Source of the DNA: Planctomycetota bacterium
GTDB lineage: Bacteria; Planctomycetota; UBA11346
NCBI GenBank assembly: GCA_013816645.1
Contig: JACDEC010000017.1
Coordinates: 1 to 16,004 of the forward strand
DNA: 16,004 nucleotides
Reading direction: 5' to 3'
Position numbers and translations under genes: made by a program
In this document: piece after piece, positions 1 to 16,004 of the stretch
Layout: every line of letters starts with the position of its first letter
Numbering within the stretch: the stretch's first letter is position 1
Notes under the pieces: model-generated
Seen by the model: only the letters and a program-made list of their open reading frames with translations
Databases searched by the model: none
What the model was told of the DNA's origin: nothing

Positions 1-921
1 ATCTTGAGCAGGGCGTCGCTCGGCGGCGATGCGTGCGCGAACGACTCGACGATCGTCGGGATGCCCAGGCCGATGTGCCGGGTGGTGCCCAAGGCCAGCA
101 CCGCGAGCGCGACCAGGATGCCGCCGACCACCAGCCGTCCGGGCATCCAGGCGATGGTCCGCTGGGCGAAGGCGCGGATGGCGCGGGTCAGCGCTGCGAA
201 AGCCAGCGCGGCCAGGCCGAAGACCGCGCCCGCGCCGACCGCGGCGAGGATCCCGAGCAGCGTCAGCGCCGGCACCGCGCCGGGGACGTACTCGGTGTGC
301 CGGACTCCGAACGCGATCGCCACCCGATCGCCGATCACCGCCGCGATCAGGCAGGGCAGGAGCGCGTCGCGGCGCATCGCGCCCAACGCGAGCACCTCGA
401 GCGCGAAGATCGCGCCGGCGATCGGCGTACCGAACACCGCGCCGAAACCACTGCTGACCCCGGCCATCAGCAGGATGCGCCGGGCGCGCTGGTCGAGGCG
501 CAGCGGGCGCGAGAGCTGATCGGCGAGCGACGCGCCCATCTGCAGCGCGGTGCCCTCGCGTCCCGCCGAGCCGCCGAACAGGTGGGTGGCCACGGTGCTG
601 ATCAGGATCATCGGCGCCATGCGCAGTGGCAGCCGGTGGCGCGGCTGATGGATCTCGGCGAGCACCAGCTCGCTGCCCGCTTCGACCGACCCGCCGAACC
701 AGTGGTAGGACAGCCCGATGACCAGTCCGGCCAACGGCAACAGCGCGATGATCCACGGGTGCTGCTCGCGCCACTCCGTCGCCCAATCCAATGCCGACAG
801 GAAGACCGCGCACGATCCGCCGGCGAGCACACCGACCGCCGCCGCGAGCAGCAGCCAGCGCAGCGCGGTCCGGGCGACGGCGAGCGGGTGCGCGAGCGGG
901 TGGGACACGAATGCCTTCATC
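1..921 (-). CDS. CLC-family anion channel / H+-coupled antiporter (EriC-like), N-terminal ~307 aa; the 3' end of the gene runs off the window start. The GREGT variant of the gating-glutamate motif suggests the fluoride-specific CLC-F subtype
   Basis: Manual minus-strand translation from ATG (complement of 919-921): MKAFVSHPLAHPLAVARTALRWLLLAAAVGVLAGG...HLFGGSAGREGTALQMGASLADQL...ILLMAGVSSGFGAVFGTPIAGAIFALEVLALG. These are the CLC hallmarks G(R/K)EG(P/T) and GxFxxPxxGxxFxxE. In-frame stop lies just upstream (complement of 934-936). The frame is open to position 1. It is not in the ORF track because no stop falls in the window. Confidence 0.8.
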
Positions 922-954
922 GAGCGGAGCGCTCAGTCGCGGGGAATGCTGCCG

Positions 955-1045
955 AGCGCCATGACAACGCTGGCTCGCCCCGGGTCAAGGTGGGCACGCT
1001 GCAGCATCCGATCGCCTGTCATGACAAACCCGTCCCGCCCGCATT
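955..1045. promoter_or_regulatory. Divergent promoter/operator region between the CLC gene and kbl. Holds two related ~22-bp direct repeats containing CATGACAA, and a perfect 10-bp palindrome TGTCATGACA
   Basis: ccATGACAAcgctggctCGCCCc at 959-981 and tcATGACAAacccgtcCCGCCCg at 1019-1041, 60 bp apart. TGTCATGACA at 1017-1026 is self-complementary. Confidence 0.25.
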
Positions 1046-1235
1046 GAGCGCCGACCGCGCGCGATCATCGTGACGCCGCATGACCGCCGCCGCGGCGCCC
1101 GCCCACTCGACGATCGCAGCGCAGGCAGCGACCGCTGACGAACTGTATCCGACGGCGGTGGCGGGAGCGGCGCGCGGCTGATCCGGCAGCCGGTTGGCAC
1201 GGTGGCATTCCCGCGCATGGCATTAGCGTTCGGCC

Positions 1236-2423
1236 ATGAACCAGCAGTTCCTCGACCACCTCCAGAGCGAGCTCGCCACGCTGCGCGAGACCGGCCTCTA
1301 CAAGCGCGAACGGGTGATCGCCTCGCCGCAGGCGGCGACGATCAGCGCGGAAGGCGCGCAGGTCGTCAACTTATGCGCCAACAACTACCTCGGCTTGGCC
1401 AACGACCACGAGCTCATCGTCGCGGCGACGCGCGCGCTGGACACCTACGGTTATGGCCTGGCTTCGGTGCGCTTCATCTGCGGCACCCAGACCGTGCATC
1501 GCGAACTGGAGAACCGGCTGGCCGCGTTCCTGCGGGTCGACGCGGCGATCCTCTACTCCTCGTGCTTCGACGCCAACGGCGGGCTGTTCGAGACCGTGCT
1601 CGGCGAGCAGGACGCGGTGATCTCGGATGCGCTCAACCACGCCTCGATCATCGACGGCATCCGCCTGTCCAAGGCCAAACGCTTCCGCTACGCCAACAAC
1701 GACATGACCGATCTGCGCCAGCAACTGGTCGCGGCCAAGGACTGCCGCTTCAAGATGATCGCCACCGACGGGGTGTTCTCGATGGACGGCACCATCGCCG
1801 ACCTCGCCGCGGTCTGCCAACTCGCCGACGAGCACGGCGCGCTGGTCATGGTCGACGACTCGCACGCCGTCGGCTTCATCGGCGCCAATGGTCGCGGCAC
1901 TCCCGAGCGCTGCGGCGTCGAGGGTCGCATCGACGTGCTCACCGGCACCTTCGGCAAGGCGCTCGGCGGGGCCTCGGGCGGCTACACCGCGGGCCGCGCG
2001 CCGATCGTCGAATGGCTGCGCCAGCGCTCGCGCCCGTACCTGTTCTCGAACACCCTCGCGCCCGCGATCGCCGCCACCACCCTGCGCGCGCTCGAACTGG
2101 TCGAGGCCGGCGCGGACCTGCGCGAGCGGCTGCGCGAGCGCACCCGCCAGTTCCGCGAGGGCATGGCCGGCCTGGGTTTCACCATCGTCCCCGGCGAGCA
2201 TCCGATCGTGCCGGTGATGCTCGGCGACGCGGTCCTCGCCCAGACCATGGCTGCGCGGCTGTTCAGCGCAGGCATCTACGCCGTCGGCTTCGCCTACCCC
2301 GTGGTGCCGATGGGCAAGGCGCGCATCCGCTGCCAGATCTCGGCCGCGCACAGCGCCGAGCACATCGACCTTGCCCTCGCAGCGTTTGCCAAGGTCGGCC
2401 GCGAACTGAAGATCATCGGCTGA
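1236..2423 (+). CDS. kbl: 2-amino-3-ketobutyrate CoA ligase (glycine C-acetyltransferase), PLP-dependent
   Basis: 395-aa ORF. Strong family resemblance: [39 protein letters not shown], and PLP-lysine motif TFGKALGG. Lies immediately upstream of tdh, as in the E. coli kbl-tdh operon. Confidence 0.95.
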
Positions 2424-2451
2424 CGCCAACCCTCTGCCGGTCAGGAACACC

Positions 2452-3483
2452 ATGACGACGATGAAGGCGCTGGTCAAAGCCAAGGCCGAGCCCGGCCTGT
2501 GGATGCAGGACGTGCCGATGCCCGAGATCGGGCCCAACGACCTGTTGATCCGCATGCGCAAAACCGCGATCTGCGGCACCGACCTGCACATCTTCGCCTG
2601 GGACGAGTGGGCGCGCCGGACCATCCCGGTGCCGATGGTCACCGGCCACGAATTCGTCGGCGTCGTCGACCAGGTGGGCTCGGCGGTGCGCGGTTTCGCT
2701 CCCGGCGACCGCGTCTCGGGCGAGGGCCACATCACCTGCGGCCATTGCCGCAACTGCCGCGCGGGACGCCGCCACCTCTGCCGCAACACCCAGGGCATCG
2801 GCGTCAACCGCACCGGCTGCTTCGGCGAATACCTGTCCCTACCCGCGGGCAACGCCTTCAAGCTGCCCGACGACATCAGCGACGAATTGGCGTCGATCTT
2901 CGACCCCTACGGCAACGCCACCCACACCGCGCTGTCCTTCGACCTGGTCGGCGAGGACGTGCTGATCACCGGCGCCGGACCGATCGGCTGCATGGCGGCG
3001 GCGATCGCCCGCCACGTCGGCGCCCGCAACGTGGTGGTCACCGACATCAACGACTACCGGCTCGCCCTGGCCACGCGCATGGGCGCGACGCGCACGGTCA
3101 ACACCGCCAAGACCCCGCTCGAGCCGGTGATGCGCGAACTCGGCATGGTCGAAGGCTTCGACGTCGGCCTGGAGATGTCGGGCAACGGCCAGGCATTCAC
3201 CGGGATGCTCGCGGCGATGAACCACGGCGGCCGCATCGCCATGCTCGGCATCCTGCCCGGTCAGGTCGCGATCGATTGGAGCACGGTGATCTTCAAAGGT
3301 CTGGTCATCAAGGGCATCTACGGCCGCGAGATGTTCGAGACCTGGTACAAGATGACCGCCATGCTGCAGAGCGGCCTCGATCTCTCGGCGGTGATCACCC
3401 ACCGCCTGCCGGTCGCGCGCTACCTCGACGGCTTCGCGGCGATGCAGACCGGGCAATCGGGCAAGGTCATCCTCGACTGGTGA
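2452..3483 (+). CDS. tdh: L-threonine 3-dehydrogenase (Zn-dependent MDR family)
   Basis: 343-aa [53 protein letters not shown], Cys-rich structural-Zn motif [15 protein letters not shown], and Rossmann motif [11 protein letters not shown]. It starts 28 bp after the kbl stop. AGGA sits 5 nt upstream of ATG 2452. ATG 2461 would give the E. coli-like MKAL N-terminus. Confidence 0.95.
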
Positions 3484-3637
3484 CCGAGCTGGCGTGACCG
3501 CCGCAACGCTTGCGACGTTCCGTGGACGCCGAGCCGGGTGACGCACGCGCACGGGAGCGCCCAGGCCCCCTGCGGTCCGCCCTACGCACCCCGGCAGGAT
3601 TGGCTGCTAATTCCGGGCCTCCGCGCGGGAACAGTCC

Positions 3638-4164
3638 ATGAGCATGCCATCGAACGATCCGGTCGAGCAGATGAACCTGCTGTTCCTGCGCCATGCGCAG
3701 GCCATCCGCGGTTTCATCGTCTGCCTCGTGGCGGGCGACCAGGGCCTGGCCGACGACGTGTTCCAGGAGGTCTTCCTGGTGGTCAGCAGGCGCGCCGCGG
3801 ACTTCCGTCCCGACGGCGACTTCACTGCCTGGGTGCGCGGGATCGCCCGCAACAAGCTGCTGGCCGTGCTGCGCCAACGGCGCCGTGGTTTCGCGCTCAG
3901 CGAGGACGTCCTGGAACTGCTCGCCGCCGAAGCGCCATCGGACGACGCCTGGGACCGCCATCAACGGGCGATACGCACCTGCCTGGATGGGCTGGCGCCG
4001 CGCGCGCGCGCGAACTGGCCGATCTGCGCTTCACCGAGGAACTCAAGCCCGCGGCGATCGCCGAGCGCGTGCATTGGACGATCAACGCGGTCAACGTCGC
4101 CCTGTCGCGCGTGCGTCGCCAGCTGCGCGATTGCTGCGAATGTCGCCTGGAGACCGAACGGTGA
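3638..4164 (+). pseudogene. ECF (sigma-24 / FecI-like) RNA polymerase sigma factor, interrupted as sequenced by a frameshift inside a (CG)7 tract. Region 2 is in frame 2 (3638-~4011) and region 4 is in frame 1 (~4012-4164)
   Basis: Frame 2 gives LLFLRHAQAIRGFIVCLVAGDQGLADDVFQEVFLVVSRRAADFRPDGDFTAWVRGIARNKLLAVLRQRRR, which is sigma region 2. Frame 1 gives ELADLRFTEELKPAAIAERVHWTINAVNVALSRVRRQLRDC, which is the region 4 HTH, ending at TGA 4162-4164. The two halves join at CGCGCGCGCGCGCG (3999-4012). Removing one CG unit, or adding one base, restores a ~175-aa ECF sigma. Confidence 0.8.
3999..4012. repeat. (CG)7 dinucleotide simple-sequence repeat at the frameshift point of the ECF sigma gene
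   Basis: Direct read of ccgCGCGCGCGCGCGCGaac. The sigma reading frame changes exactly here. Confidence 0.9.
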
Positions 4165-5468
4165 CCGGCGCGCAACGTTGCGATGCGCTGCTCGACGCCT
4201 GGCTCGACCAGGGGGACGAAACAGCCGCATCCGAACTCAACGCCCTGCTGCGCAGCGACCCCTCGGCGCGTGCGCGCTACTTCAGCGCGATGCTGGTCGA
4301 TGCCGGGATCCGCGCGGCGCTCAAGGACGCGTCGACCCACGTGCGCATCGACCGCCTGCGCCAATCGGGACGACGGCGCCTGCGCCGTCAGCGCCGCAGC
4401 GATGCCGGCCGGTATGCCGCCGCCGCGATCGCCGCCACCCTGATCGCCGCCATCGGCCTGATGATCGCGTCCAGCCGCGGCCAGCGCAGCGCGACACCGG
4501 GCGAGGCGCCGACCGTCGCCGTCCGACCCATCGAATCGAGCGTCGCGGTCGGCGCTGAAGACGTCATCGCCACCCGCACCGACGCCGGTCCGCATCGGGA
4601 GATCCGAGCAGGCGAGACCATCGCCACCGGCGATACCCCGGTGAGGCTGGTCCTGATCAGCGACCGCACGCGCATCGATCTCTCGGCCGGGACCAGCGCC
4701 CGGTTCGCGCGCGAACGCCAGGGCGTGCGCGTGCACCTCGAACACGGCGGCTTGTCCGCCGAGGTCATGCCGCGCACCGCTGATCGGCCGTTCGTGGTCG
4801 AGACTCCGCACGCCAACGCCTCCGTGGTCGGCACCGCGTTCAGCGTCGCTGTCACCGGCCACAGTACGGTGTCGGTCGGGCATGGAGTCGTCGACGTCGC
4901 CTCCGGTGGAGCGAGCGCCCGCCTGTCGGCCGGCGACGTGGCGGCCTGCGCCCGGGGCGAGGCTCCCCGCGTGGCGCGGCGGGTCGACCGGGTGCTCGAG
5001 GAACTCGCCGACCCGGGCGGCTGGAACAACTGCAGTCTCGACCTGCCCCTGGTCAGCGGCGTCGGCGGACTGGTCGGTGGGCGCTCCCTCCAGATCCATT
5101 TATCCAGCGAGCGATCCTGGGCGGGCGCGATCTTCGCCCAGCGCCAGGATTTCTCGCCATACCGCGGGCTCAGCCTGACCTGCCGAGGTCAAGGCACAGG
5201 CGCGCTGTTGCTGGTCGAGGTCCTCGACAATGGGCCCCCGCGGCAGCCTGGCGAGAAGGACCAGGCTGAACGATTCTTCGCCGACCTGGTCGATGACGTC
5301 GCGGGATGGCGCGAGGTGCGCATTCCCTTCACCGCGTTCAAGCGGCGCGAATTGCAGATGCCAGGTGCGGCGAACGATGGACTGACCCTCACCGGAACCC
5401 AGGGATTGTCGATCCTGACCAGTCGGGATACCACGCTGTCGCTCGAGCGGATCGGGCTTTACAAGTGA
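4161..5468 (+). CDS. FecR-family transmembrane anti-sigma factor with an additional ~150-aa periplasmic C-terminal beta-sandwich domain (possibly CIA30/CBM11-like)
   Basis: GTG start at 4161 overlaps the sigma-factor stop (GTGA), which implies translational coupling. The N-terminus VTGAQRCDALLDAWLDQGDETAASELNALLRSDPSARARYFSAMLV is a typical anti-sigma N-domain. One TM segment YAAAAIAATLIAAIGLMIA spans 4413-4469. The FecR domain reads RIDLSAGTSARFARE...VHLEHGGLSAEV...FVVETPHANASVVGTAFSV. The C-terminal region from ~5020 reads WNNCSLDLPLVSGVGGLVGGRS...GWREVRIPFTAFK...LSLERIGLYK. Same frame as ORF-track entry 3693..5468. Confidence 0.8.
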   Translation: MTGAQRCDALLDAWLDQGDETAASELNALLRSDPSARARYFSAMLVDAGIRAALKDASTHVRIDRLRQSGRRRLRRQRRSDAGRYAAAAIAATLIAAIGLMIASSRGQRSATPGEAPTVAVRPIESSVAVGAEDVIATRTDAGPHREIRAGETIATGDTPVRLVLISDRTRIDLSAGTSARFARERQGVRVHLEHGGLSAEVMPRTADRPFVVETPHANASVVGTAFSVAVTGHSTVSVGHGVVDVASGGASARLSAGDVAACARGEAPRVARRVDRVLEELADPGGWNNCSLDLPLVSGVGGLVGGRSLQIHLSSERSWAGAIFAQRQDFSPYRGLSLTCRGQGTGALLLVEVLDNGPPRQPGEKDQAERFFADLVDDVAGWREVRIPFTAFKRRELQMPGAANDGLTLTGTQGLSILTSRDTTLSLERIGLYK

Positions 5469-5565
5469 TGCGAGCGTTGCGCCGCGAGTGATGCACCCCG
5501 GACAGCGGGCGCAGCCCACCGGCTAAGCGACACCCGAGCCGCGGGAATCGACGGCGGAGGCCGCC

Positions 5566-8307
5566 GTGCACTTAGCCCCGAGCATCGCTTTGATCTGCTG
5601 CCTGATCGCCTCGGCGCCAGCCAGCGATTACTACGTCAGCACCAGCGGGAATGACGGCAACGCCGGGACCTCCATGGCGAGCCCGTGGCAAACCATCGCC
5701 AAGGTCAACACCAGCAATTTCGTCGCCGGCGATCGCGTGTTCTTCGCGGGCGGCCAGACCTTCACCAATCCTGGCCTGATGCTCGACGCTTCGGATACCG
5801 GCTCCGCGGCGAATCCGATCGTCATCGGCAGCTACGGGACCGGACGCGCGATCATCCGGGCCACGGGCAACGTCGACGGTCTGTTCATCTACAACACCGG
5901 CGGCGTGCGGATCCAGGATCTGATCGTCGAAGGACCGGGCGTCTCCTCCAGCACCAAGAGCGGCATCATCGCCTACTGCGATCTCGCCAATGGCAGCAAG
6001 CTCACGGGTCTCGCAATCGCCAACTGCGAAGCGCGGCAGTTCCGGAACGGCATCATCATCGGCGCGTGGCATGCTTCGTTCAGCGGCTTCTCGGGCGCGC
6101 TCGTCGAGAACTGCGTCGCGCACGACAACAGCCGCTCCGGCATCAGCAGCTACGGCTACACGACGACCTCGGCCGCGGTGCAATCGCATGCCAGCCTCAC
6201 TATCCGTGGCTGCGAAACCTACCTCAATCGTGGAGACCCCCTCCATACCGCGAACCACAGCGGCAGCGGCATCGTGGTCTCCGGCACCGTCGGCGGACTG
6301 GTCGACCAATGCTACGCCCACCACAACGGCGGATCCGCCGGCAATCCAGGCGGAGGCGGACCGGTCGGCATCTGGACCTACCAGTCCGACGGGGTGGTGA
6401 TCCAACGCTGCCTGGTGCACGACCAGAAGACCACCGCAGGCGTCAAGGACGGCGGCGGCTTCGATATCGACGGCGGCGCGGTCAATGCCGTGATCCAGTA
6501 CTGCTATTCCTACAACAACGAGGGTCCGGGTTACCTGATCTGCGAATACAGCGGCGCCGACGTGCCGGTCTCCGCGGCCACGATCCGCTATTGCCTGGGC
6601 TGGAACGACGCGCGCCGCAGGGCCAACGACCAGGGCGCTGGGTTCGATTTCTACAACGGGTATGACGGCGACCCGAGCAAACTCACGGGAGTGACCATCC
6701 ACAACAACCTGGTCTACGCCGATGCGGCCGTAGCCGGTGCGTGCGTCAAATGGGAGGGAGGCCCGCTGGCCAACGTCCGCTTCGCCAACAACATCTTCGT
6801 CGTCACCGGCGGATCACGGTTCGTCGACATCGCGGCGCACACCGCCGATTTCAGCTTCGTCGACAACGCCTATTTCTCCAGCGATGCCAATTATTCCGGT
6901 GGCTGGAAATGGAGCAGCCTGACCTACACCAGCCTGGATGCATGGCGGTCGGCATCAGGCGCGCCCGAGACCTGGAGCGGGTCCCCGGTCGGCATGCAAG
7001 CCGATCCCCTGCTCGCCAACGTGGTCGGAGGTGCGCAACCGACCTCGATCGCGGCGCTTGAATCGATCACCGCCTACCGACTGCTCGCAGGCTCGCCGTG
7101 CATCGACGCCGGGCAGGACCTGAGGACCGCGGCGTTCGGCAGCCGCACGGTCGGCAGCCGGGATTTCTTCAATCAGACGATCCCCCAGGGCGGGGCGTTC
7201 GACATCGGTGCGCACGAAACCACGCCGGCGACTGCGAACACCGCGCCGACCATCAGTCCGATCGATGGCCAGGCGATCCTCGAAGATGCGCCGACCGGCG
7301 CGATCGCCGTCACCATCGGCGATGCCGAAACCGCGGCCGGTTCGCTCACGCTCGCGGCTGCATCGTCCAACCCCACCCTGGTGCCGATCGCCAACGTGGT
7401 CTTCGCCGGTTCGTTCGCCAACCGCACGGCGACCGTGACCCCAGCCGCGGACCGCAATGGCCTCGCCACCATCACGGTCACCGTCACCGATGGTGGCGGG
7501 CTGACCGCCTCGCGATCATTCACCGTCAACGTCACCGCGGTCAATGACGAGCCCTCCTTCGTCCCGGGAGCCGACCAGAATACCTACGCGGGCGCCGGGG
7601 CGCAGACCGTGGCCAGTTGGGCGACCGCAATCAGCGCTGGGCCGACCGATGAAAGCGGGCAGACCCTGACCTTCCAGGTCAGCGCCAACAGCAATCCCGG
7701 CTTGTTCGCCACCGCTCCAGCGGTGTCCCCCGCGGGGACCTTGAGCTACACGCCCGCATCCAACGCCAATGGAACCGCCACCATCTCGCTCATGCTGGTC
7801 GACAACGGCGGCACGGCGAACGGCGGCGTGCAGGCCAGTGCGATGCAAACGTTCATGATCGCCTGCTCCCCGACGCCATTGCCCAACCTGGTCGTGTCGC
7901 GCAGTTCGGTGATCATCGGCTCGGGTGGGACCGATCGGTGCAGCGCTGCGCTCGGCGCCAATACCACCATCGCCTATGTCCTCGCCAACAGTGGCCAAGC
8001 CGTGCTGTCGATCGCCACCGCGACCGTGGTGGCGCACACCGGCTGCATCGCATCAGTCAGCGCTCTGCCCGCCGCATCGGTCGTCGCTGGTACGACCACG
8101 GGAATGGGCGTCGATGTGACGCCGCAAGCGGCGAACTGGTCATTCACCATAAGCGTGACTAGCAATGATCCCGACACGCCGAGCTACGCCTGGACGATCC
8201 GCAGCAGCACTTCCACAGTAAGCACCGCCGCCAAGCCCTGCGGCATCGGCAGCGGCATCGCCCTGGTCCTCAGCGCTCTGGCGCTGACCTTCTTTCGTCG
8301 CCACTGA
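5566..8307 (+). CDS. Secreted/surface right-handed parallel beta-helix (pectin-lyase-fold, PbH1-repeat) protein with two cadherin-like/Big-type VNDEP domains and a C-terminal sorting-signal-like tail
   Basis: 913 aa. GTG start at 5566 with GGAGG at 5556-5560. N-terminus MHLAPSIALICCLIASAPA|SDYYVSTSGNDGNAGTSMASPWQTIAKV is the DUF1565-like start of beta-helix proteins. PbH1-like repeats include NNxF...GGFDIDGG...YCYSYNNEGPGYLI. C-terminus of the helix domain is CIDAGQD...GGAFDIGAHE. From 7231 to 7870 there are two ~100-aa repeats carrying VNDEPSF. The tail AAKPCGIGSGIALVLSALALTFFRRH* spans 8233-8307. Confidence 0.8.
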   Translation: MHLAPSIALICCLIASAPASDYYVSTSGNDGNAGTSMASPWQTIAKVNTSNFVAGDRVFFAGGQTFTNPGLMLDASDTGSAANPIVIGSYGTGRAIIRATGNVDGLFIYNTGGVRIQDLIVEGPGVSSSTKSGIIAYCDLANGSKLTGLAIANCEARQFRNGIIIGAWHASFSGFSGALVENCVAHDNSRSGISSYGYTTTSAAVQSHASLTIRGCETYLNRGDPLHTANHSGSGIVVSGTVGGLVDQCYAHHNGGSAGNPGGGGPVGIWTYQSDGVVIQRCLVHDQKTTAGVKDGGGFDIDGGAVNAVIQYCYSYNNEGPGYLICEYSGADVPVSAATIRYCLGWNDARRRANDQGAGFDFYNGYDGDPSKLTGVTIHNNLVYADAAVAGACVKWEGGPLANVRFANNIFVVTGGSRFVDIAAHTADFSFVDNAYFSSDANYSGGWKWSSLTYTSLDAWRSASGAPETWSGSPVGMQADPLLANVVGGAQPTSIAALESITAYRLLAGSPCIDAGQDLRTAAFGSRTVGSRDFFNQTIPQGGAFDIGAHETTPATANTAPTISPIDGQAILEDAPTGAIAVTIGDAETAAGSLTLAAASSNPTLVPIANVVFAGSFANRTATVTPAADRNGLATITVTVTDGGGLTASRSFTVNVTAVNDEPSFVPGADQNTYAGAGAQTVASWATAISAGPTDESGQTLTFQVSANSNPGLFATAPAVSPAGTLSYTPASNANGTATISLMLVDNGGTANGGVQASAMQTFMIACSPTPLPNLVVSRSSVIIGSGGTDRCSAALGANTTIAYVLANSGQAVLSIATATVVAHTGCIASVSALPAASVVAGTTTGMGVDVTPQAANWSFTISVTSNDPDTPSYAWTIRSSTSTVSTAAKPCGIGSGIALVLSALALTFFRRH

Positions 8308-8664
8308 CGACCCCATCTGCGCATGTGCACCGAGTAGTGCTCCCTTGAGCGCCTCGATCCGTGCGTGGTGAGTCAAAACCCCCCGGTCCATCACTCGACG
8401 TAAGTACCATTCCTGGCGCAGCCGAGCCTATTTTCCCTGCCTCCGCTCGCAGCAGGCGGGAGCGAGGTCCGTTCCGACATTCGCGCGAATGATCGAACGT
8501 GTGCAGTGACGCTGCTGCACCTCCGTCGGCATGAATTACCAGCCCTACGTCATGAAAAATGCATCACCGACCGTATGATAGTGCTAGTTTAATCATTTAT
8601 CCGGCGTCCTAGGCTCTCGCGCCCTATTGGTTTCGTGCAAAAAGCGAAATCTCCTGGAGTCGCC
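8308..8664. promoter_or_regulatory. Long, comparatively AT-rich 5' leader and promoter region of the large adhesin gene. Contains imperfect palindromes gtgcagtgacgctgctgcac and tgatagtgctagtttaatca, and possible -10 TATGAT
   Basis: 357 bp with no convincing ORF and far lower GC than its surroundings (for example catgaaaaatgcatcaccgaccgtatgatagtgctagtttaatcatttatcc). It lies immediately upstream of ATG 8665, which has GGAG at 8656-8659. Confidence 0.3.
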
Positions 8665-10206
8665 ATGTTTGAGCCAGTCCGCCTGACCTCATCTTTCCTG
8701 TCCAGTCGGCTGATCGGCGCGGCTGCGCTGGCATTGGCGCTGCTCTGCGCTGCACCAGCTCACGCAGCGAATGTGCGCTGGGACGGTGGCGGCGCGGATG
8801 GCCAGTGGTCGAATCCGCTGAACTGGAAAAATGACGCGGTGCCGGGTTCCGGCGACAGCGTCGCCTTTCCGGCCAATTACGTGACAGCGCCGCTGGCGGT
8901 GAATCTCAGCGCGCCGGTCACCGTCGGCGCGCTCACCCTGGCGACGTCGAGCCCAGTGAGCTTCACCGGCGCCACGATCACCGTGAACAAGCGGATCGTC
9001 GTCAACTTCGGCAGTCACAGCATCGCCAATGCGATCGACGGGAAGAATGGATCCGATCTGCTGATCATCGTCGGCACCGGCAGCTCGCTCGCGCTCAGCG
9101 GCGCCATCTCGGTCAGCAACAACAAGATCCTGGCGCTGACCCGCGACGGTGCGGTGACGATGTCCGGGGCGCTCAGCGGCACGGGCGTGCAACTGGTCGT
9201 CGGCGGGGCGGGCAGCCTCACCCTGTCTGGTGCGAGCACCTATACCGGATCGACCAGCATCAATGGAGGCACCGTGATGGTCGTGGCCAACGCGCCGGTC
9301 TTGGCCGCGGGTCCGTTCGGCGACGCCGCATCCGCCATCAACATCGGCAATATCGTCACCGCCGCCAACATCTCGATCCATGCCGCCAACGGCGTGACGA
9401 TCGGCCGTCCCGTCACGGTCTCGGCGAATGCGACCGGAAGCGTCACCGTGGGGGCAGCGAGCGGCGCAGTCAGCTTCGCGGGCGCGATCACCCTCGAGCG
9501 CGGAGCCACCCTCAGCGCACCTGCCGGTGCCACAGCGACGTTCTCGGGAGCCATCAGCGGCGCAGGCTTCGGCGTGACCAAGAGCGGTGCCGGCACCGGC
9601 GCCCTGGACAACGCGCTCAACACCTACACCGGCGCCACCACGGTGGCGGCCGGCGTGCTGCTCGCCAATGGCGCGACCCAGGCGACCGGGACGGCCGTCA
9701 GCACGGTCACCGTCGCCAGTGGCGCCACCCTGGGCGGCGCCGGTCGGATTGCCGGCACTGTCAGCGTCGCTGCAGGCGGCACCCTGGCTCCCGGCAATGC
9801 CAGCGGCATCGGCACGCTCACCGTCAATGGCGACGTCACGGTGCCGGCTGGGGCAATCCTGCGCGTGCACCTCAATGGCGCCACGCCGAGCCAATCCGGC
9901 AAGCTGGCAGTCACTGCCGGCACGGTCTCGCTCGCAGGCAACCTGGTGGTCAACCTGAGCCCGGCCTCGGTGTTCTCCACCGGGTGGACCATCCTCGACA
10001 AAGGTGCCGCAGGCGCGATCTCTGGCACCTTCGCCGGCAAGCCCGAGGGCGCCGCCTTCGCGGCGAATGGCCGCGGACTGCAGATCACGTACGTCGCGGA
10101 ACCAACAGCAACGACATCCTGCTCGCTGATATCGGACCGACCACCAACCCGGAAGTCCTCAGCCTGTCCCCCGCCTTCGGCACCACGCGCGGCGGCGACA
10201 GCGTGA
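8665..10206 (+). CDS. Large surface adhesin, N-terminal segment as sequenced: signal peptide plus autotransporter-associated beta-strand (PATR) repeat region. The reading frame breaks near 10093-10100 and continues in frame 0 (see next feature)
   Basis: ATG 8665 with GGAG 5 nt upstream. The ORF track starts at GTG 8635. Signal peptide MFEPVRLTSSFLSSRLIGAAALALALLCAAPAHA|AN. Then WDGGGADGQWSNPLNWKNDAVPGSGDSVAF, repeated LTLSGASTYTGSTSINGGTV-type PATR units, and the typical passenger end GTLTVNGDVTV...GRGLQITYV. The last ~36 codons before the stop at 10206 (AEPTATTSCSL...) are off-frame garbage. Confidence 0.75.
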   Translation: MFEPVRLTSSFLSSRLIGAAALALALLCAAPAHAANVRWDGGGADGQWSNPLNWKNDAVPGSGDSVAFPANYVTAPLAVNLSAPVTVGALTLATSSPVSFTGATITVNKRIVVNFGSHSIANAIDGKNGSDLLIIVGTGSSLALSGAISVSNNKILALTRDGAVTMSGALSGTGVQLVVGGAGSLTLSGASTYTGSTSINGGTVMVVANAPVLAAGPFGDAASAINIGNIVTAANISIHAANGVTIGRPVTVSANATGSVTVGAASGAVSFAGAITLERGATLSAPAGATATFSGAISGAGFGVTKSGAGTGALDNALNTYTGATTVAAGVLLANGATQATGTAVSTVTVASGATLGGAGRIAGTVSVAAGGTLAPGNASGIGTLTVNGDVTVPAGAILRVHLNGATPSQSGKLAVTAGTVSLAGNLVVNLSPASVFSTGWTILDKGAAGAISGTFAGKPEGAAFAANGRGLQITYVAEPTATTSCSLISDRPPTRKSSACPPPSAPRAAATA

Positions 10207-12686
10207 CCCTCACCGGCCTGCTGCTCACCGGCCCGTCCGGCGGACTGACGCCCACGGTGAGCTTCGCGGGCGTGGCCGGGGCGGTCACCGCGTCGACCCC
10301 GACCTCGGTCACGGTGACCACGCCGGACCTGTCGATCGGCGCTTCGACCCAACTGGTGGATGTCGCGTTGACCGTCAACGGCAACACCTCGACCGTGCTG
10401 CTCGGCTTCGAGTACCGGCGTCCCGTCCTGACCGTCACCGCCGCCAACGCCTCCCGCATCCATGGCACGGCGAACCCGGCTTTCGGCGTGTCCTTCGCCG
10501 GATTGGTCGCGCCGGACAGCGATCCGCTCGCGGTGGTCAGCGGCACGGTGGCATACGCCACCGCTGCGACGCCCACCTCGTCACCGAACGGCTACGCCAT
10601 CGAGCCTTCGGGCCTGACCAGCGCCGACTACGCGATCGTGTACGTCAACGGCCTGCTCACCGTCACCCAGGCACCGCCGACCATCAACTGGTCGACGCCT
10701 GCGCCGATCGCTTACACGACGGGTGGCGCGGCCCTGCCGGCCAGCGCGCTCAACGCCACGATCAGCGACGTCAATCTCGGTCTCGCGCTGACCGACCCCA
10801 CCACCGGGACGATCGCCTATACGCCGGCCTCAGGCACGCTGCTCAACGCCGGGTCCCACGCGCTCACGGTGACCTACACGCCGCTGATCGACAGCGCCTA
10901 CGACGACAACTGCCTGCAGACCAGTGGAACGGTGTACCAGATCGTCACGGCGATCCCGGTGACCATCACCTGGGCCAATCCCGCCGACATCACCTATGGC
11001 ACCGCGCTGGATGCGTCGCAGCTGAACGCCACGAGCGGGGGCGTCCCTGGCAGCTTCATCTACACGCCCGCGTCGGGCATCCGATTGTCCGCCGGCGACG
11101 CCCAGACGCTCAGCACCACCTTCACCCCCAGCGACCCCAACTACGCGACCACCACCACGACGGCCACGATCGACGTGCTGGCCAAGGCGCTGACCATCAC
11201 CGCCGATGACGCCGCCAAGGTCTACGGCGCAGCCAATCCCGATTTCGCCGCATCCTACGACGGTTTCGTCACCGGCGACGACGAGGACGATCTCGGCGGA
11301 AGCCTCGCCTTCGCCACCAGCGCCGACGCCAGCAGCGCGGTCGGCGACTACGACGTCACCCCGAGCGGGCTGACCAGCACCAACTACGTGATCGCCTTCG
11401 CCGATGGTACCCTGTCGATCACCGCCAAGGCGCTGACCATCACCGCCGATGACGCCGCCAAGGTCTACGGCGCAGCCAATCCCGATTTCGCCGCATCCTA
11501 CGACGGTTTCGTCACCGGCGACGACGAGGACGATCTCGGCGGAAGCCTCGCCTTCGCCACCAGCGCCGACGCCAGCAGCGCGGTCGGCGACTACGACGTC
11601 ACCCCGAGCGGATCGACCAGCACCAACTACGCGATCACCTTCGCCGACGGCACCCTGTCGATCACCGCCAAGGCGCTGACCATCACCACCGTCAACTCCA
11701 CCAAGGTCTACGGCGAAGCCAATCCCGATTTCGCCGCATCCTACGACGGTTTCGTCACCGGCGACGACGAGGACGACCTGGGCGGGAGCCTCGCCTTCGC
11801 CACCAGCGCCGACGCCAGCAGCGCGATCGGCGACTACGCCGTCACCCCGAGCGGGCTGACCAGCACCAACTACGCGATCACCTTCGCCGATGGCACGCTC
11901 ACGGTCGGCGCCAGGACCCTGACCGTCACGACGAACGCGTGCTCCAAGGTCTATGGCGCGGCCAACTCGGACTTCGCGGTCAGCTATACGGGATTCGCCA
12001 TCGGCGACGACGTCAGCGACCTCGGCGGCCTCCTGGCCTTCACCACCACCGCCACCGCGGCCAGCGCGGTCGGCGCCTACGACGTCACCCCGGGCGGACT
12101 GACCAGCACCACGTACGCGATCACCTTCGTGAAGGGCACGCTCACCGTGACCAAGCAGGAGCTGGTGGTGACCGCCGATCACAAGCTCGTCGCCAAGGGC
12201 GCGACCATCATCCCGGCCTCGCTGACCTGGACCGCGACCGGCTTCGTCGCCGGCGACGGCGCGGGCAGCGCCTTCAGCGGAGCGCCCGAACTCGGGACCA
12301 GCGCTGACGCCGCCACCGTCGGCTCCTATCCCATCACCATCGCCATCGGCACGCTGGCTTCGACCAACTACAGCTTCTCGCTGGTCGGGGGCACACTCGA
12401 CGTCTACGTCCTGGATGTGACCAGCATCACGGTCAGCGGCACGATCACCGGCAGCAGCGCCACGACCGCGACGATCAGCTCCGGAACCATCACCAAGACC
12501 GGATCGACCTGGTCGGCGGCGGTCCCTCTGCCCGGCGCAACGTCCAGGACAGTGACGGTGCAGGCCCACGATCGCGGCAAGCATTCCACCCTGCTGCCGA
12601 TCACCATCGACGAGGGTGATGTCCCGGTGCCGAAACCGTCCTCCAGCCTGCCGCCTGTGCCGCTGATGCCCGCGGCGAAGGGATGA
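9984..12686 (+). CDS. Large surface adhesin, C-terminal segment (frame 0): IPT/TIG domain followed by ~8 MBG/YG-type repeat domains. Genuine codons begin about 10096. ATG 9984 and the following ~37 codons are an artefact of the frameshift
   Basis: Frame 0 from ~10096 reads GTNSNDILLADIG, which completes the PATR terminal ITYxGGxxNDxxL consensus. Then PEVLSLSPAFGTTRGGDSVTLTG...VSFAGVAGAVTASTPTSVTVTTP, which is IPT/TIG. Then repeated units such as KVYGAANPDFAASYDGFVTGDDEDDLGGSLAFATSADASSAVGDYDVTPSGLTSTNYAITFADGTLSIT, which are MBG/YG-type. There is no C-terminal beta-barrel translocator domain. Confidence 0.75.
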   Translation: MDHPRQRCRRRDLWHLRRQARGRRLRGEWPRTADHVRRGTNSNDILLADIGPTTNPEVLSLSPAFGTTRGGDSVTLTGLLLTGPSGGLTPTVSFAGVAGAVTASTPTSVTVTTPDLSIGASTQLVDVALTVNGNTSTVLLGFEYRRPVLTVTAANASRIHGTANPAFGVSFAGLVAPDSDPLAVVSGTVAYATAATPTSSPNGYAIEPSGLTSADYAIVYVNGLLTVTQAPPTINWSTPAPIAYTTGGAALPASALNATISDVNLGLALTDPTTGTIAYTPASGTLLNAGSHALTVTYTPLIDSAYDDNCLQTSGTVYQIVTAIPVTITWANPADITYGTALDASQLNATSGGVPGSFIYTPASGIRLSAGDAQTLSTTFTPSDPNYATTTTTATIDVLAKALTITADDAAKVYGAANPDFAASYDGFVTGDDEDDLGGSLAFATSADASSAVGDYDVTPSGLTSTNYVIAFADGTLSITAKALTITADDAAKVYGAANPDFAASYDGFVTGDDEDDLGGSLAFATSADASSAVGDYDVTPSGSTSTNYAITFADGTLSITAKALTITTVNSTKVYGEANPDFAASYDGFVTGDDEDDLGGSLAFATSADASSAIGDYAVTPSGLTSTNYAITFADGTLTVGARTLTVTTNACSKVYGAANSDFAVSYTGFAIGDDVSDLGGLLAFTTTATAASAVGAYDVTPGGLTSTTYAITFVKGTLTVTKQELVVTADHKLVAKGATIIPASLTWTATGFVAGDGAGSAFSGAPELGTSADAATVGSYPITIAIGTLASTNYSFSLVGGTLDVYVLDVTSITVSGTITGSSATTATISSGTITKTGSTWSAAVPLPGATSRTVTVQAHDRGKHSTLLPITIDEGDVPVPKPSSSLPPVPLMPAAKG
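11181..12152 (+). repeat. Four tandem 243-bp (81-codon) MBG-domain repeat units in the adhesin gene
   Basis: Units start at 11181, 11424, 11667 and 11910, all codon-aligned. Units 1 and 2 differ at only ~8 nt. Unit 3 is ~90% identical and unit 4 more diverged. A fifth, degenerate unit follows (~12153-12395). Confidence 0.85.
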
Positions 12687-13036
12687 ACATCATGAACTCC
12701 CGCAACGGATCGACTCTCATGCGCAGACTGCTCCTGAGCTTCGGCTCCCGCTTCACCCTCCTGTGCCTGATGGCGGCGGTGGCGACCACCGTGGGCTGCG
12801 GCGGTGGGGGAGGAGGCGGGGGTGGAGGCGTGACTCCCACGGTCTCGCTCGGCAGCGTGACGCTCTCCGGCCAGGTCGAGTTCCCCGGCACCGTCGAGGT
12901 GCAGGTCGATGGCGCACCCGCGGTGGTCTCGGGCACCACCTGGACCTTCACCACCACCCAGGTCACGGCGATACGACGTGACGATGAGCGAAGGGGGCAC
13001 GCTGCTCGCCCATCGGAGCGTGGTGGTTCACGCTAA
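12683..13036 (+). CDS. Small putative lipoprotein with a Gly10 linker. Start and 3' end are uncertain
   Basis: ATG 12683 overlaps the adhesin stop (ATGA). Alternative in-frame starts are ATG 12692 (AGGG ~9 nt upstream) and ATG 12719 (MRRLLLSFGSRFTLLCLMAAVATTVGC, a classical-length lipoprotein signal with lipobox-like TVG|C). The Cys codon is at 12797-12799, followed by GGGGGGGGGG (12800-12829) and then VTPTVSLGSVTLSGQVEFPGTVEVQVDGAPAVVSGTTWTFTTTQVTA. The last ~23 codons use rare codons (ata, cga, agg, ggg, tca), so the true C-terminus is doubtful. Confidence 0.5.
   Translation: MNIMNSRNGSTLMRRLLLSFGSRFTLLCLMAAVATTVGCGGGGGGGGGGVTPTVSLGSVTLSGQVEFPGTVEVQVDGAPAVVSGTTWTFTTTQVTAIRRDDERRGHAARPSERGGSR
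12800..12829 (+). repeat. (GGN)10 tract encoding a poly-glycine run. Contains two G5 homopolymer stretches
   Basis: Direct read: ggcggtgggggaggaggcgggggtggaggc. Confidence 0.9.
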
Positions 13037-13172
13037 GAGACACCTGGCCCGGGCGAGGCTGGTGGACAAGGCAAGGCTATTAGCCCCCGAGGGATGGACA
13101 TAACGGTCCGGCCACCGATTCCGCTTCGATAACGTGCGCTGGGTATAGCATCGGTCGCCCAAGGCGAACCCG

Positions 13173-13931
13173 ATGGATGAGATGCTCACCGCCGCCACTG
13201 CCGTACCGACCGCATTGTTCAGCGGCCTGCTGCTGGTGGCGTTGGCCTACTGGCTGCTGGTGGCGATGGGCCAGATGGACATCGACATGTTCCACATCCA
13301 CACCGACCACGGCGAGGTCGGCGACCTCGGCCACCACGGCGCGCTCGACTTCCTGTCGATCGGCAAGGTGCCCCTGACCCTGCTGTTGACCCTGTTCCTG
13401 CTCATCGCCTGGTCGCTCTCGATGAGCGCCGAACTGTCGCTGCGCGCTCCCCTGTCGTCGATCCTGCCGTCCTGGGCCTACGCCACGATCGCCGGAGCCG
13501 GCGCGACCATCGCCGCGCTGTTCGGCACCGCGGCGGCCGCCCGGCCGCTGCGCAAGCTGTTCACGCTCGACACGGTGCACGCCCACCAGGCGCTGGTCGG
13601 CCGCCAGGCGACCATCACCTCCGGCCAGGTCGACGAGCGCTTCGGCACCGCGAGCATCGCCACCGACGGTCCCGACATCCTGCTCAACGTGATCTGCGCG
13701 ACCGGGATGCGCCTGGCCCGCGGCGAGCAGGCGGTGGTGGTCGAGCACGACGCCGAGCGCGACCTCTACCTCGTCGCGCCCCTCCCGCACCTGCGCCCCG
13801 GTTTCCTCGCCACCGGCATCGACGGAACGCCGGCCGAGCAGCCGCCAGCGCCGGTCCTACCGGCGGCGACGCTGCCCGCGAATCTTCCTGCCAACGCTGC
13901 GCCGCCGGCGCGCGCCACCGAATCCGCCTGA
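13173..13931 (+). CDS. NfeD-like / YqiJ-family (DUF1449) inner-membrane protein with a C-terminal OB-fold domain. Partner of the downstream flotillin
   Basis: 252 aa. AAGG sits 8 nt upstream of ATG 13173. Hydrophobic segments are LFSGLLLVALAYWLLVAMG, VPLTLLLTLFLLIAWSL and WAYATIAGAGATIAALFG. The C-terminal part GRQATITSGQVDERFGTASIATDGPDILLNVICATGMRLARGEQAVVVEHDAERDLYLVAP resembles an NfeD OB-fold. Gene order matches E. coli yqiJ-yqiK. Confidence 0.75.
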   Translation: MDEMLTAATAVPTALFSGLLLVALAYWLLVAMGQMDIDMFHIHTDHGEVGDLGHHGALDFLSIGKVPLTLLLTLFLLIAWSLSMSAELSLRAPLSSILPSWAYATIAGAGATIAALFGTAAAARPLRKLFTLDTVHAHQALVGRQATITSGQVDERFGTASIATDGPDILLNVICATGMRLARGEQAVVVEHDAERDLYLVAPLPHLRPGFLATGIDGTPAEQPPAPVLPAATLPANLPANAAPPARATESA

Positions 13932-13949
13932 ACCGCAACTGAACCGCAA
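13928..13949 (+). repeat. Perfect 11-bp tandem direct repeat ctgaaccgcaa x2, spanning the stop codon of the NfeD-like gene and the 30-bp spacer before the flotillin gene
   Basis: Direct read: gcCTGAACCGCAACTGAACCGCAAcctggagctcccATG. Confidence 0.85.
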
Positions 13950-13961
13950 CCTGGAGCTCCC

Positions 13962-15968
13962 ATGACCCCGCTCATCATCACCGCCGCCATCGGCGCTTTC
14001 CTGCTGATTCTGGTCATCGCCTTGAACGCGTTCTACCGCACGGTCGAGCAGGGCCACGCCCTGATCATCAACAAGCTCGGCCACCTCGAACCGACCGTGA
14101 CCTTCACCGGCGCCATGGTCATGCCGGTGATCCACCGCGCGGAGGTCATGGACATCTCGGTCAAGACCATCGAGGTCGACCGCAACGGCGCCAACGGGCT
14201 GATCTGCAAGGACAACATCCGCGCCGACATCAAGGTCACCTTCTTCGTGCGCGTCAACAAGACGCGCGAGGACGTGGTCAAGGTCGCCGGATCAGTCGGC
14301 GTGGCGCGGGCCAGCGACACCGAGACCCTGGCCGAACTGTTCGAAGCCAAGTTTTCCGAAGCGCTCAAGACTGTGGGCAAGCGCATGGAGTTCATCGACC
14401 TCTACAACCAGCGCGACACCTTCAAGGACGAGATCGTCAAGGTCATCGGCCGCGACCTCAGCGGCTACAACCTCGAGGACGCGGCGATCGACTACCTCGA
14501 GCAGACCCCGCTCAAGATGCTCGATCCCGACAACATCCTCGATAGCGAGGGCCGCAAGAAGATCATCGACCTGACCAGCACCCAGCGGGTCATGGCCAAC
14601 GAGATCCAGCGCGAGGCCGAGAAGACCATCAAGAAGCAGGACGTCGAAGCCAAGGAGGCGATGCTCTCGCTGGAGCGCCAGCAGGCCGAGGCCGAGGCGC
14701 GCCAGGGTCGCGAGATCGCCACCACCCGCGCCCGCGAGACCGCCGAGCAGCACAAGGTCGAGGCCGAACAGCGCCAGCTGTCGGAGGGCGCGCGCATCGC
14801 CTCCGAGCAGGAGATCGGCATCGCCCGCGAGAACGCCCAGCGCGAGGTCCAGGTCGCTGAGAAGAACCGCGAGGGCGCGGTCGCCGTCGAGTACGAGCGC
14901 GTCGAGAAGGCCCGCCAGCTCGAAGCGATCAACCGCGAGCGCGCGGTCGAGATCAGCGGCATCGAGAAGGAGAAGATCATCGCCATCGAGCGCAAGAACA
15001 TCGCCGAGGTGATCCGCGAGCGCGTCTCGGTCGAGAAGGCCGTGGCCGAGGAAGAGGAGCTGACCAAGAACCTGCGCGCCTTCATGGAGGCCGACCGCCA
15101 CAAGAAGGTCACGGTGGCCCACGCCGAGGCCGCGGCCGAGCAGGTGCGCATCAAGGAGGTCACCGCCGCGATCGGGTCCGAGCAGGCCGCCGGCCACCTC
15201 GCCAAGGAACGCATGATCACCGCCGATGCCGACCTCAACGCCGCCGAGAAGGACGCGCTGGCGCGCACCCGCCGGGCCGAGGGCATGCAGGCCGAGACCG
15301 CGGCGCCGGGCCTGGCCCACGCGCGGGTGATGGAGGCCGAGGCCGAGGCCCGCCGCAAGCAGGGCCTGGCCGAAGTCCACGTGCAGGAGGCGTCGGCCAA
15401 GGCGATCGAGCTGGTCGGCCAGGCCGAAGCCGGTGCGACCGAGGTCAAGATGCTCGCCGAGGCCAAGGGCCTGGCCGAGAAGGCGGTGTCGATGTCCAAG
15501 CTCACCGCCGAGACCAAGGCGCACGAGGAGTTCCGCCTGCGCCTCGAGAAGGAGTTCGAGCTGGCGCGCGAGCGCATCGCCGGCCAGGTCAAGGTCTCGG
15601 AGCAGAACGCCGTGGTGCTCGGCCAGGCGCTGTCCAAGGCGAAGTTCGACATCGTCGGCGGCGACGGCGAGTTCTTCGAGCGCTTCGTCAAGGCGGTGTC
15701 GGTCGGCAAGGGCCTCGACGCCACCGTGCAGCACAGCGAAACGCTCAAGATCCTGGGCAAGGACTACCTGAGCGGCGAGCAGAGCCTGCCCGGAGACGTG
15801 AAGGACGTGCTGCTCAACACCAGCATGGGCAGCGGCGACGTGAAGAACCTCACGGTCAGCGCGATGCTCTCGCGGATGATGGCCGGCAAGGATCCGGTCA
15901 AGGTCGACGCGCTGCTCGCCAAGGCGCGCGAGCTCGGGTTCGTCGACCATCCGAGCAAGGTCAACTGA
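13962..15968 (+). CDS. Flotillin-family SPFH/band-7 protein (YqiK-like) with an extended Glu/Ala-rich coiled-coil region
   Basis: 668 aa. GGAG sits 5 nt upstream of ATG 13962. N-terminal TM segment LIITAAIGAFLLILVIALNAF. The SPFH core reads QGHALIINKLGHLEP...MPVIHRAEVMDISVKTIEV...NIRADIKVTFFVRV. A long EA-repeat coiled coil (EAEARQGREIATTRARETAEQHKVEAEQRQ...) and a flotillin-type C-terminus follow. Confidence 0.9.
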   Translation: MTPLIITAAIGAFLLILVIALNAFYRTVEQGHALIINKLGHLEPTVTFTGAMVMPVIHRAEVMDISVKTIEVDRNGANGLICKDNIRADIKVTFFVRVNKTREDVVKVAGSVGVARASDTETLAELFEAKFSEALKTVGKRMEFIDLYNQRDTFKDEIVKVIGRDLSGYNLEDAAIDYLEQTPLKMLDPDNILDSEGRKKIIDLTSTQRVMANEIQREAEKTIKKQDVEAKEAMLSLERQQAEAEARQGREIATTRARETAEQHKVEAEQRQLSEGARIASEQEIGIARENAQREVQVAEKNREGAVAVEYERVEKARQLEAINRERAVEISGIEKEKIIAIERKNIAEVIRERVSVEKAVAEEEELTKNLRAFMEADRHKKVTVAHAEAAAEQVRIKEVTAAIGSEQAAGHLAKERMITADADLNAAEKDALARTRRAEGMQAETAAPGLAHARVMEAEAEARRKQGLAEVHVQEASAKAIELVGQAEAGATEVKMLAEAKGLAEKAVSMSKLTAETKAHEEFRLRLEKEFELARERIAGQVKVSEQNAVVLGQALSKAKFDIVGGDGEFFERFVKAVSVGKGLDATVQHSETLKILGKDYLSGEQSLPGDVKDVLLNTSMGSGDVKNLTVSAMLSRMMAGKDPVKVDALLAKARELGFVDHPSKVN

Positions 15969-16004
15969 GCCCCGCTGAACCACCGGACGCACGCTGATGA
16001 CCGA

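Follow-up and report, generated by a model that had tools for sequence, protein, structure and literature searches.

Described C-terminal sorting signals

Cys-containing C-terminal signals, and CPBP-type proteases with them, have only recently been recognised. The MYXO-CTERM signal (models TIGR03901.2 and TIGR03382; enzymes MrtX, MrtC, and MrtP, the myxosortases, with core model NF040914) is described as restricted to Myxococcota and Bradymonadales, and has an invariant Cys followed by Gly, a helix, and an Arg cluster at the end of Sec-exported surface enzymes. Its cleavage by MrtX of Myxococcus xanthus has been shown experimentally, MrtX being the sole enzyme with such proof (PMC11980579). 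In the working model the protein is exported by Sec, retained by its C-terminal helix, lipidated on the Cys, cleaved by a myxosortase, and transported to the surface by type II secretion (PMC11980579); an action of Lgt on MYXO-CTERM has been raised as a hypothesis only (PMC11980579). The CGP-CTERM signal of Thermococcales (TIGR04288; archaeomyxosortase MrtA) is ~20 residues long, opens with Cys-Gly, and has its motif abutting the helix. For tripartite C-terminal sorting signals at large, Haft lists eight attributes. In the literature that we searched we found no description of a Cys-type C-terminal signal in Planctomycetota. Here we describe a 16,004-nucleotide stretch of DNA from a Planctomycetota bacterium (contig JACDEC010000017.1 of assembly GCA_013816645.1, positions 1 to 16,004; hereafter the window) that encodes a 913-residue beta-helix protein. 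On sequence grounds and by analogy we hold it slightly probable, on balance, that the last 24 residues of this protein are a Cys-type tripartite C-terminal sorting signal, which we designate the CGxG tail, and that its Cys would be modified, the tail cleaved by a CPBP-type protease, and the enzyme displayed on the surface.

The tail of the window protein

The 913-residue open reading frame (ORF; conceptual translation) occupies positions 5566-8307 of the forward strand, on which the sigma factor and anti-sigma factor genes described below also lie. A database look-up showed its product to be identical to MBA3683860.1, from a Planctomycetota metagenome-assembled genome (MAG), and found a second copy in GCA_020064125.1, where a 6.9-kb contig matches the window base for base. 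The translated C-terminus reads ...RSSTSTVSTAAKPCGIGSGIALVLSALALTFFRRH, which divides into ...STVSTAAKP-CGIG-SGIALVLSALALTFF-RRH. A preliminary description of this DNA, made from the sequence alone, had placed a tail of three parts here, and its coordinates proved exact: K890-H913 are encoded by 8233-8304, and the stop codon is 8305-8307. The parts are also as it described them. A Ser/Thr-rich linker (TSTVSTAAKP, 8209-8238; Ser and Thr make up 43% of the 30 residues ahead of the Cys) leads to the signature motif C-G-I-G (8239-8250; family consensus C-G-x-G). The motif runs directly into an uncharged membrane segment, GIGSGIALVLSALALTFF (8242-8295), within an uncharged stretch extending from C892 to F910, and the 13-residue hydrophobic core of this segment, IALVLSALALTFF, averages 2.57 on the Kyte-Doolittle scale. 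The basic cluster RRH (8296-8304) and the stop codon complete the tail (8296-8307), so that the first basic residue lies 19 residues from the Cys and the stop codon 22 residues from the motif.

The codons of the tail helix also contain a terminator-like hairpin at 8270-8287 (TCAGCGC-TCTG-GCGCTGA, then CCTTCTTTCG), 20 bases ahead of the stop codon. Terminator-like sites in the window are no more numerous than in shuffles, and searches of the window against Rfam and for tRNAs found neither RNA families nor tRNAs.

Relatives with the same tail

We inspected the C-termini of the 120 best matches to the whole window protein (identifiers beginning with P; those beginning with L are fetched loci). 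Five of the closest homologues have a tail of this kind at their end: P0003 (GGGGCGAGLTGLLVLAGLGLRQRRD), P0004 (GGGGCGSGGVLGLLALGQMSCLVRRRRG...), P0007 (GGCGAGGLMGILLSGLSLVWLTPRSARGR...), P0009 (GGGGCGAGGLAGILAMGLTLGLMRRRYS...), and P0044 (QPQCGLGAASSALGVALLAWRRRDG). A sixth copy, P0123, is an orphan 64-residue ORF (L002, 7036-7230) that nearly duplicates the tail of P0007, CGxG included, and it sits 55 bases downstream of P0009, whose gene has its own tail. Because this orphan second tail lies just downstream of a tail-bearing gene, P0123 looks like a leftover of the replacement or exchange of a C-terminal cassette. A further copy was found past the annotated end of P0010, whose gene in L164 (12476-13204; L165 has the same sequence) has an in-frame TAA inside an immunoglobulin-like (Ig) repeat. 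Past this TAA the frame runs for 241 codons, encoding two more domains and a CGAG tail, to ...SSGGGGGGCGAGSSLALLCAVLACSLTVRGRHSLLDK*. Since the continuation encodes these elements, the annotated 825-residue P0010 is, to judge from its reading frame, a truncated or interrupted form of a tail-bearing protein of ~1067 residues. NCBI labels the sources of P0001 and P0010, the latter from assembly GCA_964652775.1, as Planctomycetota MAGs.

Comparison of the eight tails (the window protein and seven relatives) showed that only three positions are invariant, the Cys, the Gly at +1, and the Gly at +3; the Cys-Gly that the preliminary description called invariant-looking is thus invariant in fact, with a second Gly besides. 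The residue x of C-G-x-G is I, A, S, or L. In all eight, the Cys opens an uncharged run of 16-21 residues that is closed by Arg or Lys, with no spacer between motif and segment. The basic clusters of the relatives are RQRR, RRRR, or RRR, or weaker in P0007, and are followed by 0-25 further residues, and most relatives have Gly-Gly runs near the Cys (GGGGCGAGG). Linker and helix sequences are divergent among the eight, and the regions ahead of the tails vary from Flg_new repeats to a Big_13-like Ig domain, a carboxypeptidase-regulatory-like domain, a bare Thr/Gly linker, and, in the window protein, a domain without assignment. As the preceding domains differ while linker and helix have diverged, the tail behaves as a module.

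A strict pattern (CG.G, 10-22 uncharged residues, a basic pair, and the C-terminus) was run against all stop-to-stop ORFs of at least 40 residues in 2.1 Mb of fetched loci and the window. It matched 5 of 25,259 ORFs, all five within the beta-helix gene family, with a background of zero in the about 25,250 others; the tail pattern exceeds chance.

C-termini of more distant homologues

Profile scans of genome and metagenome contigs with the beta-helix alignment showed the beta-helix domain to be widespread; among the matches listed, these scans returned distant homologues only (identity at most 54% in genomes and at most 42% in metagenomes), with neither the genome of the window nor the close relatives among them. 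At the position of the CGxG tail, a Phycisphaeraceae homologue (L079) has a PEP-CTERM signal (TIGR02595, 25.9 bits vs a cut-off of 16), and two homologues have genuine MYXO-CTERM signals (L084 with 29.1 bits and P0092 with 26.8 bits, TIGR03901.2 cut-off 20). Four Bacteroidota-type homologues (P0093, P0103, P0111, and P0115) carry the C-terminal domain of type IX secretion systems (T9SS; PF18962), and many others end directly after the beta-helix, with no tail.

Homologues that end in PEP-CTERM, MYXO-CTERM, or T9SS signals, or in none, make up the pattern of the eighth of Haft's attributes, alternative signals in homologues. Five other attributes are likewise found in the window protein: it has an N-terminal signal peptide, and its tail lies at the C-terminus, has three or more invariant residues in the signature, spans a hydrophobic helix, and closes with a cluster of 2-5 basic residues. 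For a further attribute, several carriers per genome, our count is one occurrence within the 16-kb window. As to the last, that carriers be otherwise unrelated, the beta-helix domain is common to all eight, with differing domains beside the tail.

Comparison with described signals

The preliminary description held that the tail matches none of the canonical motifs exactly, and NCBIfam and Pfam indeed returned no sorting-signal model for the window tail at E ≤ 10. It also likened the single Cys to that of MYXO-CTERM, which agrees with our finding that the closest analogues are the Cys-containing signals. The invariant signature Cys that characterizes MYXO-CTERM has its equivalent in Cys892, invariant in the eight tails, and members of the same beta-helix family bear genuine MYXO-CTERM in other lineages (P0092 and L084). 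None of the CGxG tails reached the MYXO-CTERM cut-offs, the best being P0009, which fell just below that of TIGR03382 (13.8 bits vs 15.85) and scored 7.3 bits vs 20 with TIGR03901.2; P0092 and L084 (MYXO-CTERM) and L079 (TIGR02595) served as positive controls that passed their models. The two kinds of tail differ in motif, since MYXO-CTERM has GCGC or GCQC whereas the window tail has a single Cys, and in geometry: in the four MYXO-CTERM examples that we compared (P0092, P0112, L084, and TraA; PMC11980579), 25-27 residues separate the first Cys from the closing basic residue and a polar or charged spacer takes up 6-14, whereas the CGxG tails span 16-21 and are spacer-less. They differ also in host, Myxococcota and Bradymonadales vs Planctomycetota, and no myxosortase was seen either in the window or beside the genes of the relatives. 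Membership in MYXO-CTERM was rejected on the lack of a match of the window tail to TIGR03901.2 or TIGR03382 and on the planctomycete host.

With its spacer-less geometry and Ser/Thr-rich lead-in (43%, vs 41% in CGP-CTERM according to Haft), the window tail looks most like the archaeal CGP-CTERM, to go by its sequence. The two share a length of ~20 residues, a Cys-Gly opening, and a motif abutting the helix; however, CGP-CTERM is archaeal and continues with Gly-Pro, whereas the CGxG tail is bacterial and has Gly-x-Gly (I, A, S, or L, then the invariant Gly). We rejected membership on the absence of a TIGR04288 match at E ≤ 10, the C-G-[IASL]-G motif, and the bacterial host. In its overall geometry the tail also equals the PEP-CTERM signals processed by exosortases, in which motif and basic cluster are 17-19 residues apart in the fetched Planctomycetota and Verrucomicrobiota loci, and PEP-CTERM is in use by Phycisphaeraceae L079 and by neighbouring Planctomycetota genes. 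PEP-CTERM has Pro-Glu-Pro, in contrast to the invariant Cys of the CGxG tail, and membership was rejected because the window tail has neither Pro-Glu-Pro nor a TIGR02595 match. GlyGly-CTERM was rejected as well (Gly-Gly is absent from KPCGIGSG, and at E ≤ 10 the domain models of GlyGly-CTERM gave no match), as was JDVT-CTERM on hidden Markov model (HMM) scores. The tail would be best filed as a variant, so far without a curated model, of the class that holds MYXO-CTERM, CGP-CTERM, JDVT-CTERM, and Synerg-CTERM, distinguished by C-G-x-G, by the lack of a spacer, and by its occurrence in Planctomycetota.

A likeness of another kind is to the N-terminal lipoprotein signal (lipobox L-[AS]-[GA]-C; Lgt and LspA), of which the CGxG tail is a mirror image: cytoplasmic basic residues, a helix, small residues, and an outer-face Cys, with the chain polarity opposite and the element at the C-terminus. 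Small lipoproteins in which the lipobox Cys is followed by 7-11 Gly are encoded in the window at 12683-13036 (TVGC-G10), in L166 at 6711-7133 (LAGC-G11), and in L167 at 10094-10549 (LAAC-G7). Those of L166 and L167 are homologous (E about 1e-7), and each directly follows a tail-less beta-helix gene.

Proposed processing and alternative explanations

By the sorting-signal reading, the signal peptide seen in the sequence would route the beta-helix enzyme, which resembles glycoside hydrolase family 136 (GH136), through Sec. The C-terminal helix would then stop transfer, so that the enzyme stays at the outside of the cytoplasmic membrane and RRH in the cytoplasm, as the positive-inside rule predicts, with the Cys exactly at the membrane boundary. 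There the Cys would be modified, most likely with lipid, and an intramembrane endopeptidase would cut beside it and remove the helix and RRH; if the M. xanthus model (PMC11980579) is taken as a guide, this enzyme is most likely of the CPBP/Rce1 type, like the myxosortases. The mature enzyme would stand on the cell surface, ending in a flexible Ser/Thr- or Gly-rich tether and the modified Cys, and the conserved gene order described below suggests that it would act on the glycan sensed by the adjacent pair of extracytoplasmic function (ECF) sigma factor and FecR-CBM11 anti-sigma factor. The spacer-less motif with 16-21 residues to the basic cluster matches the geometry of signals cut by deeply membrane-embedded enzymes.

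A more far-reaching form of this reading is possible but tentative. Planctomycetota may have a Cys-dependent pathway of their own, in which C-G-x-G would act as a mirror-image lipobox, the Cys would be lipidated, and a CPBP-type 'planctosortase' would yield surface glycosidases that are lipid-anchored at their C-termini, on tethers mirroring those of the nearby N-terminal lipoproteins. For the sorting-signal reading as a whole it is suggestive that the tails of the relatives, if cleaved, would leave ...GGGGGG-C, the mirror of the C-GGGGGG start of those lipoproteins.

If the sorting-signal reading is true, the CGxG form would extend the Cys-type class to the Planctomycetes-Verrucomicrobia-Chlamydiae (PVC) group. 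The biology of the planctomycete envelope and the breakdown of glycans at the surface matter ecologically, and little is known of how the enzymes are displayed. The variant would also offer annotators a new model, because the name given to MBA3683860.1 by the Prokaryotic Genome Annotation Pipeline (PGAP), 'right-handed parallel beta-helix repeat-containing protein', says nothing more specific. With a Cys placed exactly at the membrane boundary, the window protein would suit as a substrate on which to probe lipidation, a step of the myxosortase model that is unproven.

Of the other explanations, the one that survives best, which we nonetheless think rather unlikely, is a plain uncleaved anchor: the helix would tether the enzyme at the outside of the cytoplasmic membrane, and C-G-x-G would be kept by descent or by helix packing through small residues. 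Several results weigh against a sorting signal. One is the weakness of the basic cluster in the window protein (RRH) and in P0007 (R-S-A-R-G-R). The others speak also for the anchor. All eight carriers have the beta-helix domain and belong to one protein family, so every carrier found is a homologue and some of the conservation could stem from shared ancestry. The window tail has no HMM match. The preliminary description had reported no cognate sortase-type gene, and we likewise saw none among the annotated window genes; nor was a CPBP, rhomboid, or exosortase gene found in any contig examined, i.e., in the window or the 10-kb flanks of seven relatives. Finally, no unrelated carrier came out of profile searches of 1.84 and 5.8 billion proteins, which missed known carriers as well.

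These searches carry little weight, however, as the controls show. Scanned by HMMER with a tail profile of 30 columns, 1.84 billion representative proteins yielded three matches at E ≤ 0.001, of which one was the window protein and two were junk (a 5253-residue repeat translation of eukaryote-like character and a GxGxxG repeat); a profile of 30 residues is unable to reach library-wide significance. A word-indexed search with the last 48 residues of the window protein gave no candidates and missed the parent protein too, the index being blind to the query, and one with a six-tail profile returned only P0123 and missed the training sequences themselves. Because the short-profile searches missed known positives and the matches listed from the contig scans were filled by distant homologues, the lack of unrelated carriers and of an enzyme is absence of evidence, not evidence of absence. 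Other points argue against a permanent anchor. The 13-residue hydrophobic core would be short for one, and a Gly-rich, helix-breaking stretch lies ahead of it; invariance is confined to the Cys and two Gly while helix and linker drift; the tail is kept through domain swaps; other lineages have curated, cleaved sorting signals at the same position; and the protein passes the choice-of-anchor Q model.

A second alternative, that the tail is a divergent substrate of a system without Cys (GlyGly-CTERM and rhombosortase, or a degenerate PEP-CTERM and exosortase), we judge improbable. The Gly-Gly runs near the Cys in most relatives fit it, two tails weakly match the GlyGly-CTERM family model (SVAGG) with E-values of 0.74-1.3, and the Planctomycetota loci that we fetched commonly have PEP-CTERM (L040 and L079), whose spacing from motif to basic residues equals that of the CGxG tail. 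However, the window tail (KPCGIGSG) and that of P0044 (QPQCGLGA) have neither Gly-Gly nor Pro-Glu-Pro, which makes such a substrate unlikely and leaves C-G-x-G as the sole common feature; TIGR02595 detects the real PEP-CTERM homologue and none of the CGxG tails, and the GlyGly-CTERM domain models are silent. Chance resemblance or an annotation artefact, such as a wrong stop or a frameshifted end, is effectively refuted, despite the many spurious hydrophobic and Arg-rich frames of high-GC DNA, because the tail frame is continuous with a 913-residue protein that has domain matches throughout, an identical protein is on a second contig, and the tail is conserved in relatives.

Returning to the sorting-signal reading, the preliminary description had gone on to suggest a distinct sorting system or substrate class. 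Part of this stands, in that close homologues keep CGxG, helix, and Arg behind different domains while distant ones swap signals; a distinct system is a well-founded inference, and it stays one because all of the carriers found belong to one beta-helix family.

Domains of the beta-helix protein

The protein opens with an N-terminal Sec signal peptide (5566-5625), read from the sequence as VHLAPSIALICCLIASAPAS followed by DYYVS..., and a short hydrophobic leader ending in ...A(A/T)|D(Y/F)YVS opens all 16 of the close homologues inspected. In the AlphaFold2 (AF2) model, residues 3-14 form a helix. The right-handed beta-helix domain, putatively catalytic and GH136-like, follows at 5626-7218 (PF13229, 50.4 bits in Pfam). 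The GH136 lacto-N-biosidases 7v6i and 5gqc were matched by phmmer with E-values of 1e-10 to 9e-9, the 1e-10 alignment spanning only residues 17-112. The AF2 model is confident only across residues 20-470 (predicted local distance difference test scores of 70-94), and its best Foldseek matches in the Protein Data Bank were again GH136 enzymes, 6kqs and 5gqc (E-values of 4e-10 to 5e-10, target TM-scores of 0.45-0.53, 16-21% identity), with lyases of polysaccharide lyase family 6 (PL6) ranking next. By sequence and model, the domain is thus most similar to GH136 lacto-N-biosidases, with PL6 lyases second, and the protein is a putative carbohydrate-active enzyme. The choice-of-anchor Q segment (NF041518, choice_anch_Q) lies at 7075-7221 (residues 504-552), its NCBIfam score being 26.6 bits vs a cut-off of 25. 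Two cadherin-like, Big_9, or tandem-95 Ig-like domains (PF17892 with 36.3 bits, PF17963 with 32.4 bits, and NF012211 with 46.1 bits) occupy 7219-7866. The region between them and the linker (7867-8208, residues 768-881) has no family assignment, the nearest being a weak NF041425 match (E 0.057), and low AF2 confidence; its sequence suggests a beta-sandwich.

Gene neighbourhood

The window encodes a ClC channel, kbl, tdh, an ECF sigma factor, a FecR-CBM11 anti-sigma factor, the beta-helix protein, a PATR-repeat protein, an MBG/TIG protein, a small lipoprotein, a YqiJ-like protein, and a flotillin-like protein. A look-up of tdh by identical protein led to a 4.4-kb contig contained within the window, and the same look-up for the flotillin-like protein gave no record. 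The sigma factor gene (3638-4164) is apparently frameshifted near 3975-3990, as Sigma70_r2 is in the frame of 3638 and Sigma70_r4_2 in the frame of 3538, and the gene caller predicted no sigma gene at 3638-4164. The frameshift sequence recurs in L168; that locus and the window are near-identical, so they may not be independent assemblies. The FecR-type anti-sigma factor gene (4161-5468, its start taken from the gene call in L168) encodes a FecR domain (PF04773, 46.9 bits) and a C-terminal CBM_11-like domain (PF03425, 29.7 bits).

The order of ECF sigma factor, FecR/CBM_11 anti-sigma factor, and beta-helix enzyme is kept in seven contigs (3638-8307 in the window and six related contigs), and the CBM_11-like domain is on the FecR anti-sigma factor in most of them. 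In the P0010 genome this three-gene unit lies amid sulfatases, GDSL esterases, and BNR proteins. The conserved gene order suggests glycan-sensing, trans-envelope regulation of a surface enzyme that would degrade the glycan.

The beta-helix, PATR, and MBG genes (5566-12686) have a third-position GC of 0.80-0.84, vs 0.93-0.95 for kbl, tdh, and the genes of the ClC, YqiJ-like, and flotillin-like proteins (1236-3483 and 13173-15968); a foreign origin of the surface-protein genes, or weaker selection on their codons, could account for the lower values. The MBG/TIG frame is open from 8835, so that it shares more than 1.3 kb with the PATR-repeat ORF (8665-10206), the overlap as called being 4 bases at 10203, and 8593-12686 may be a single large adhesin gene that is frameshifted.

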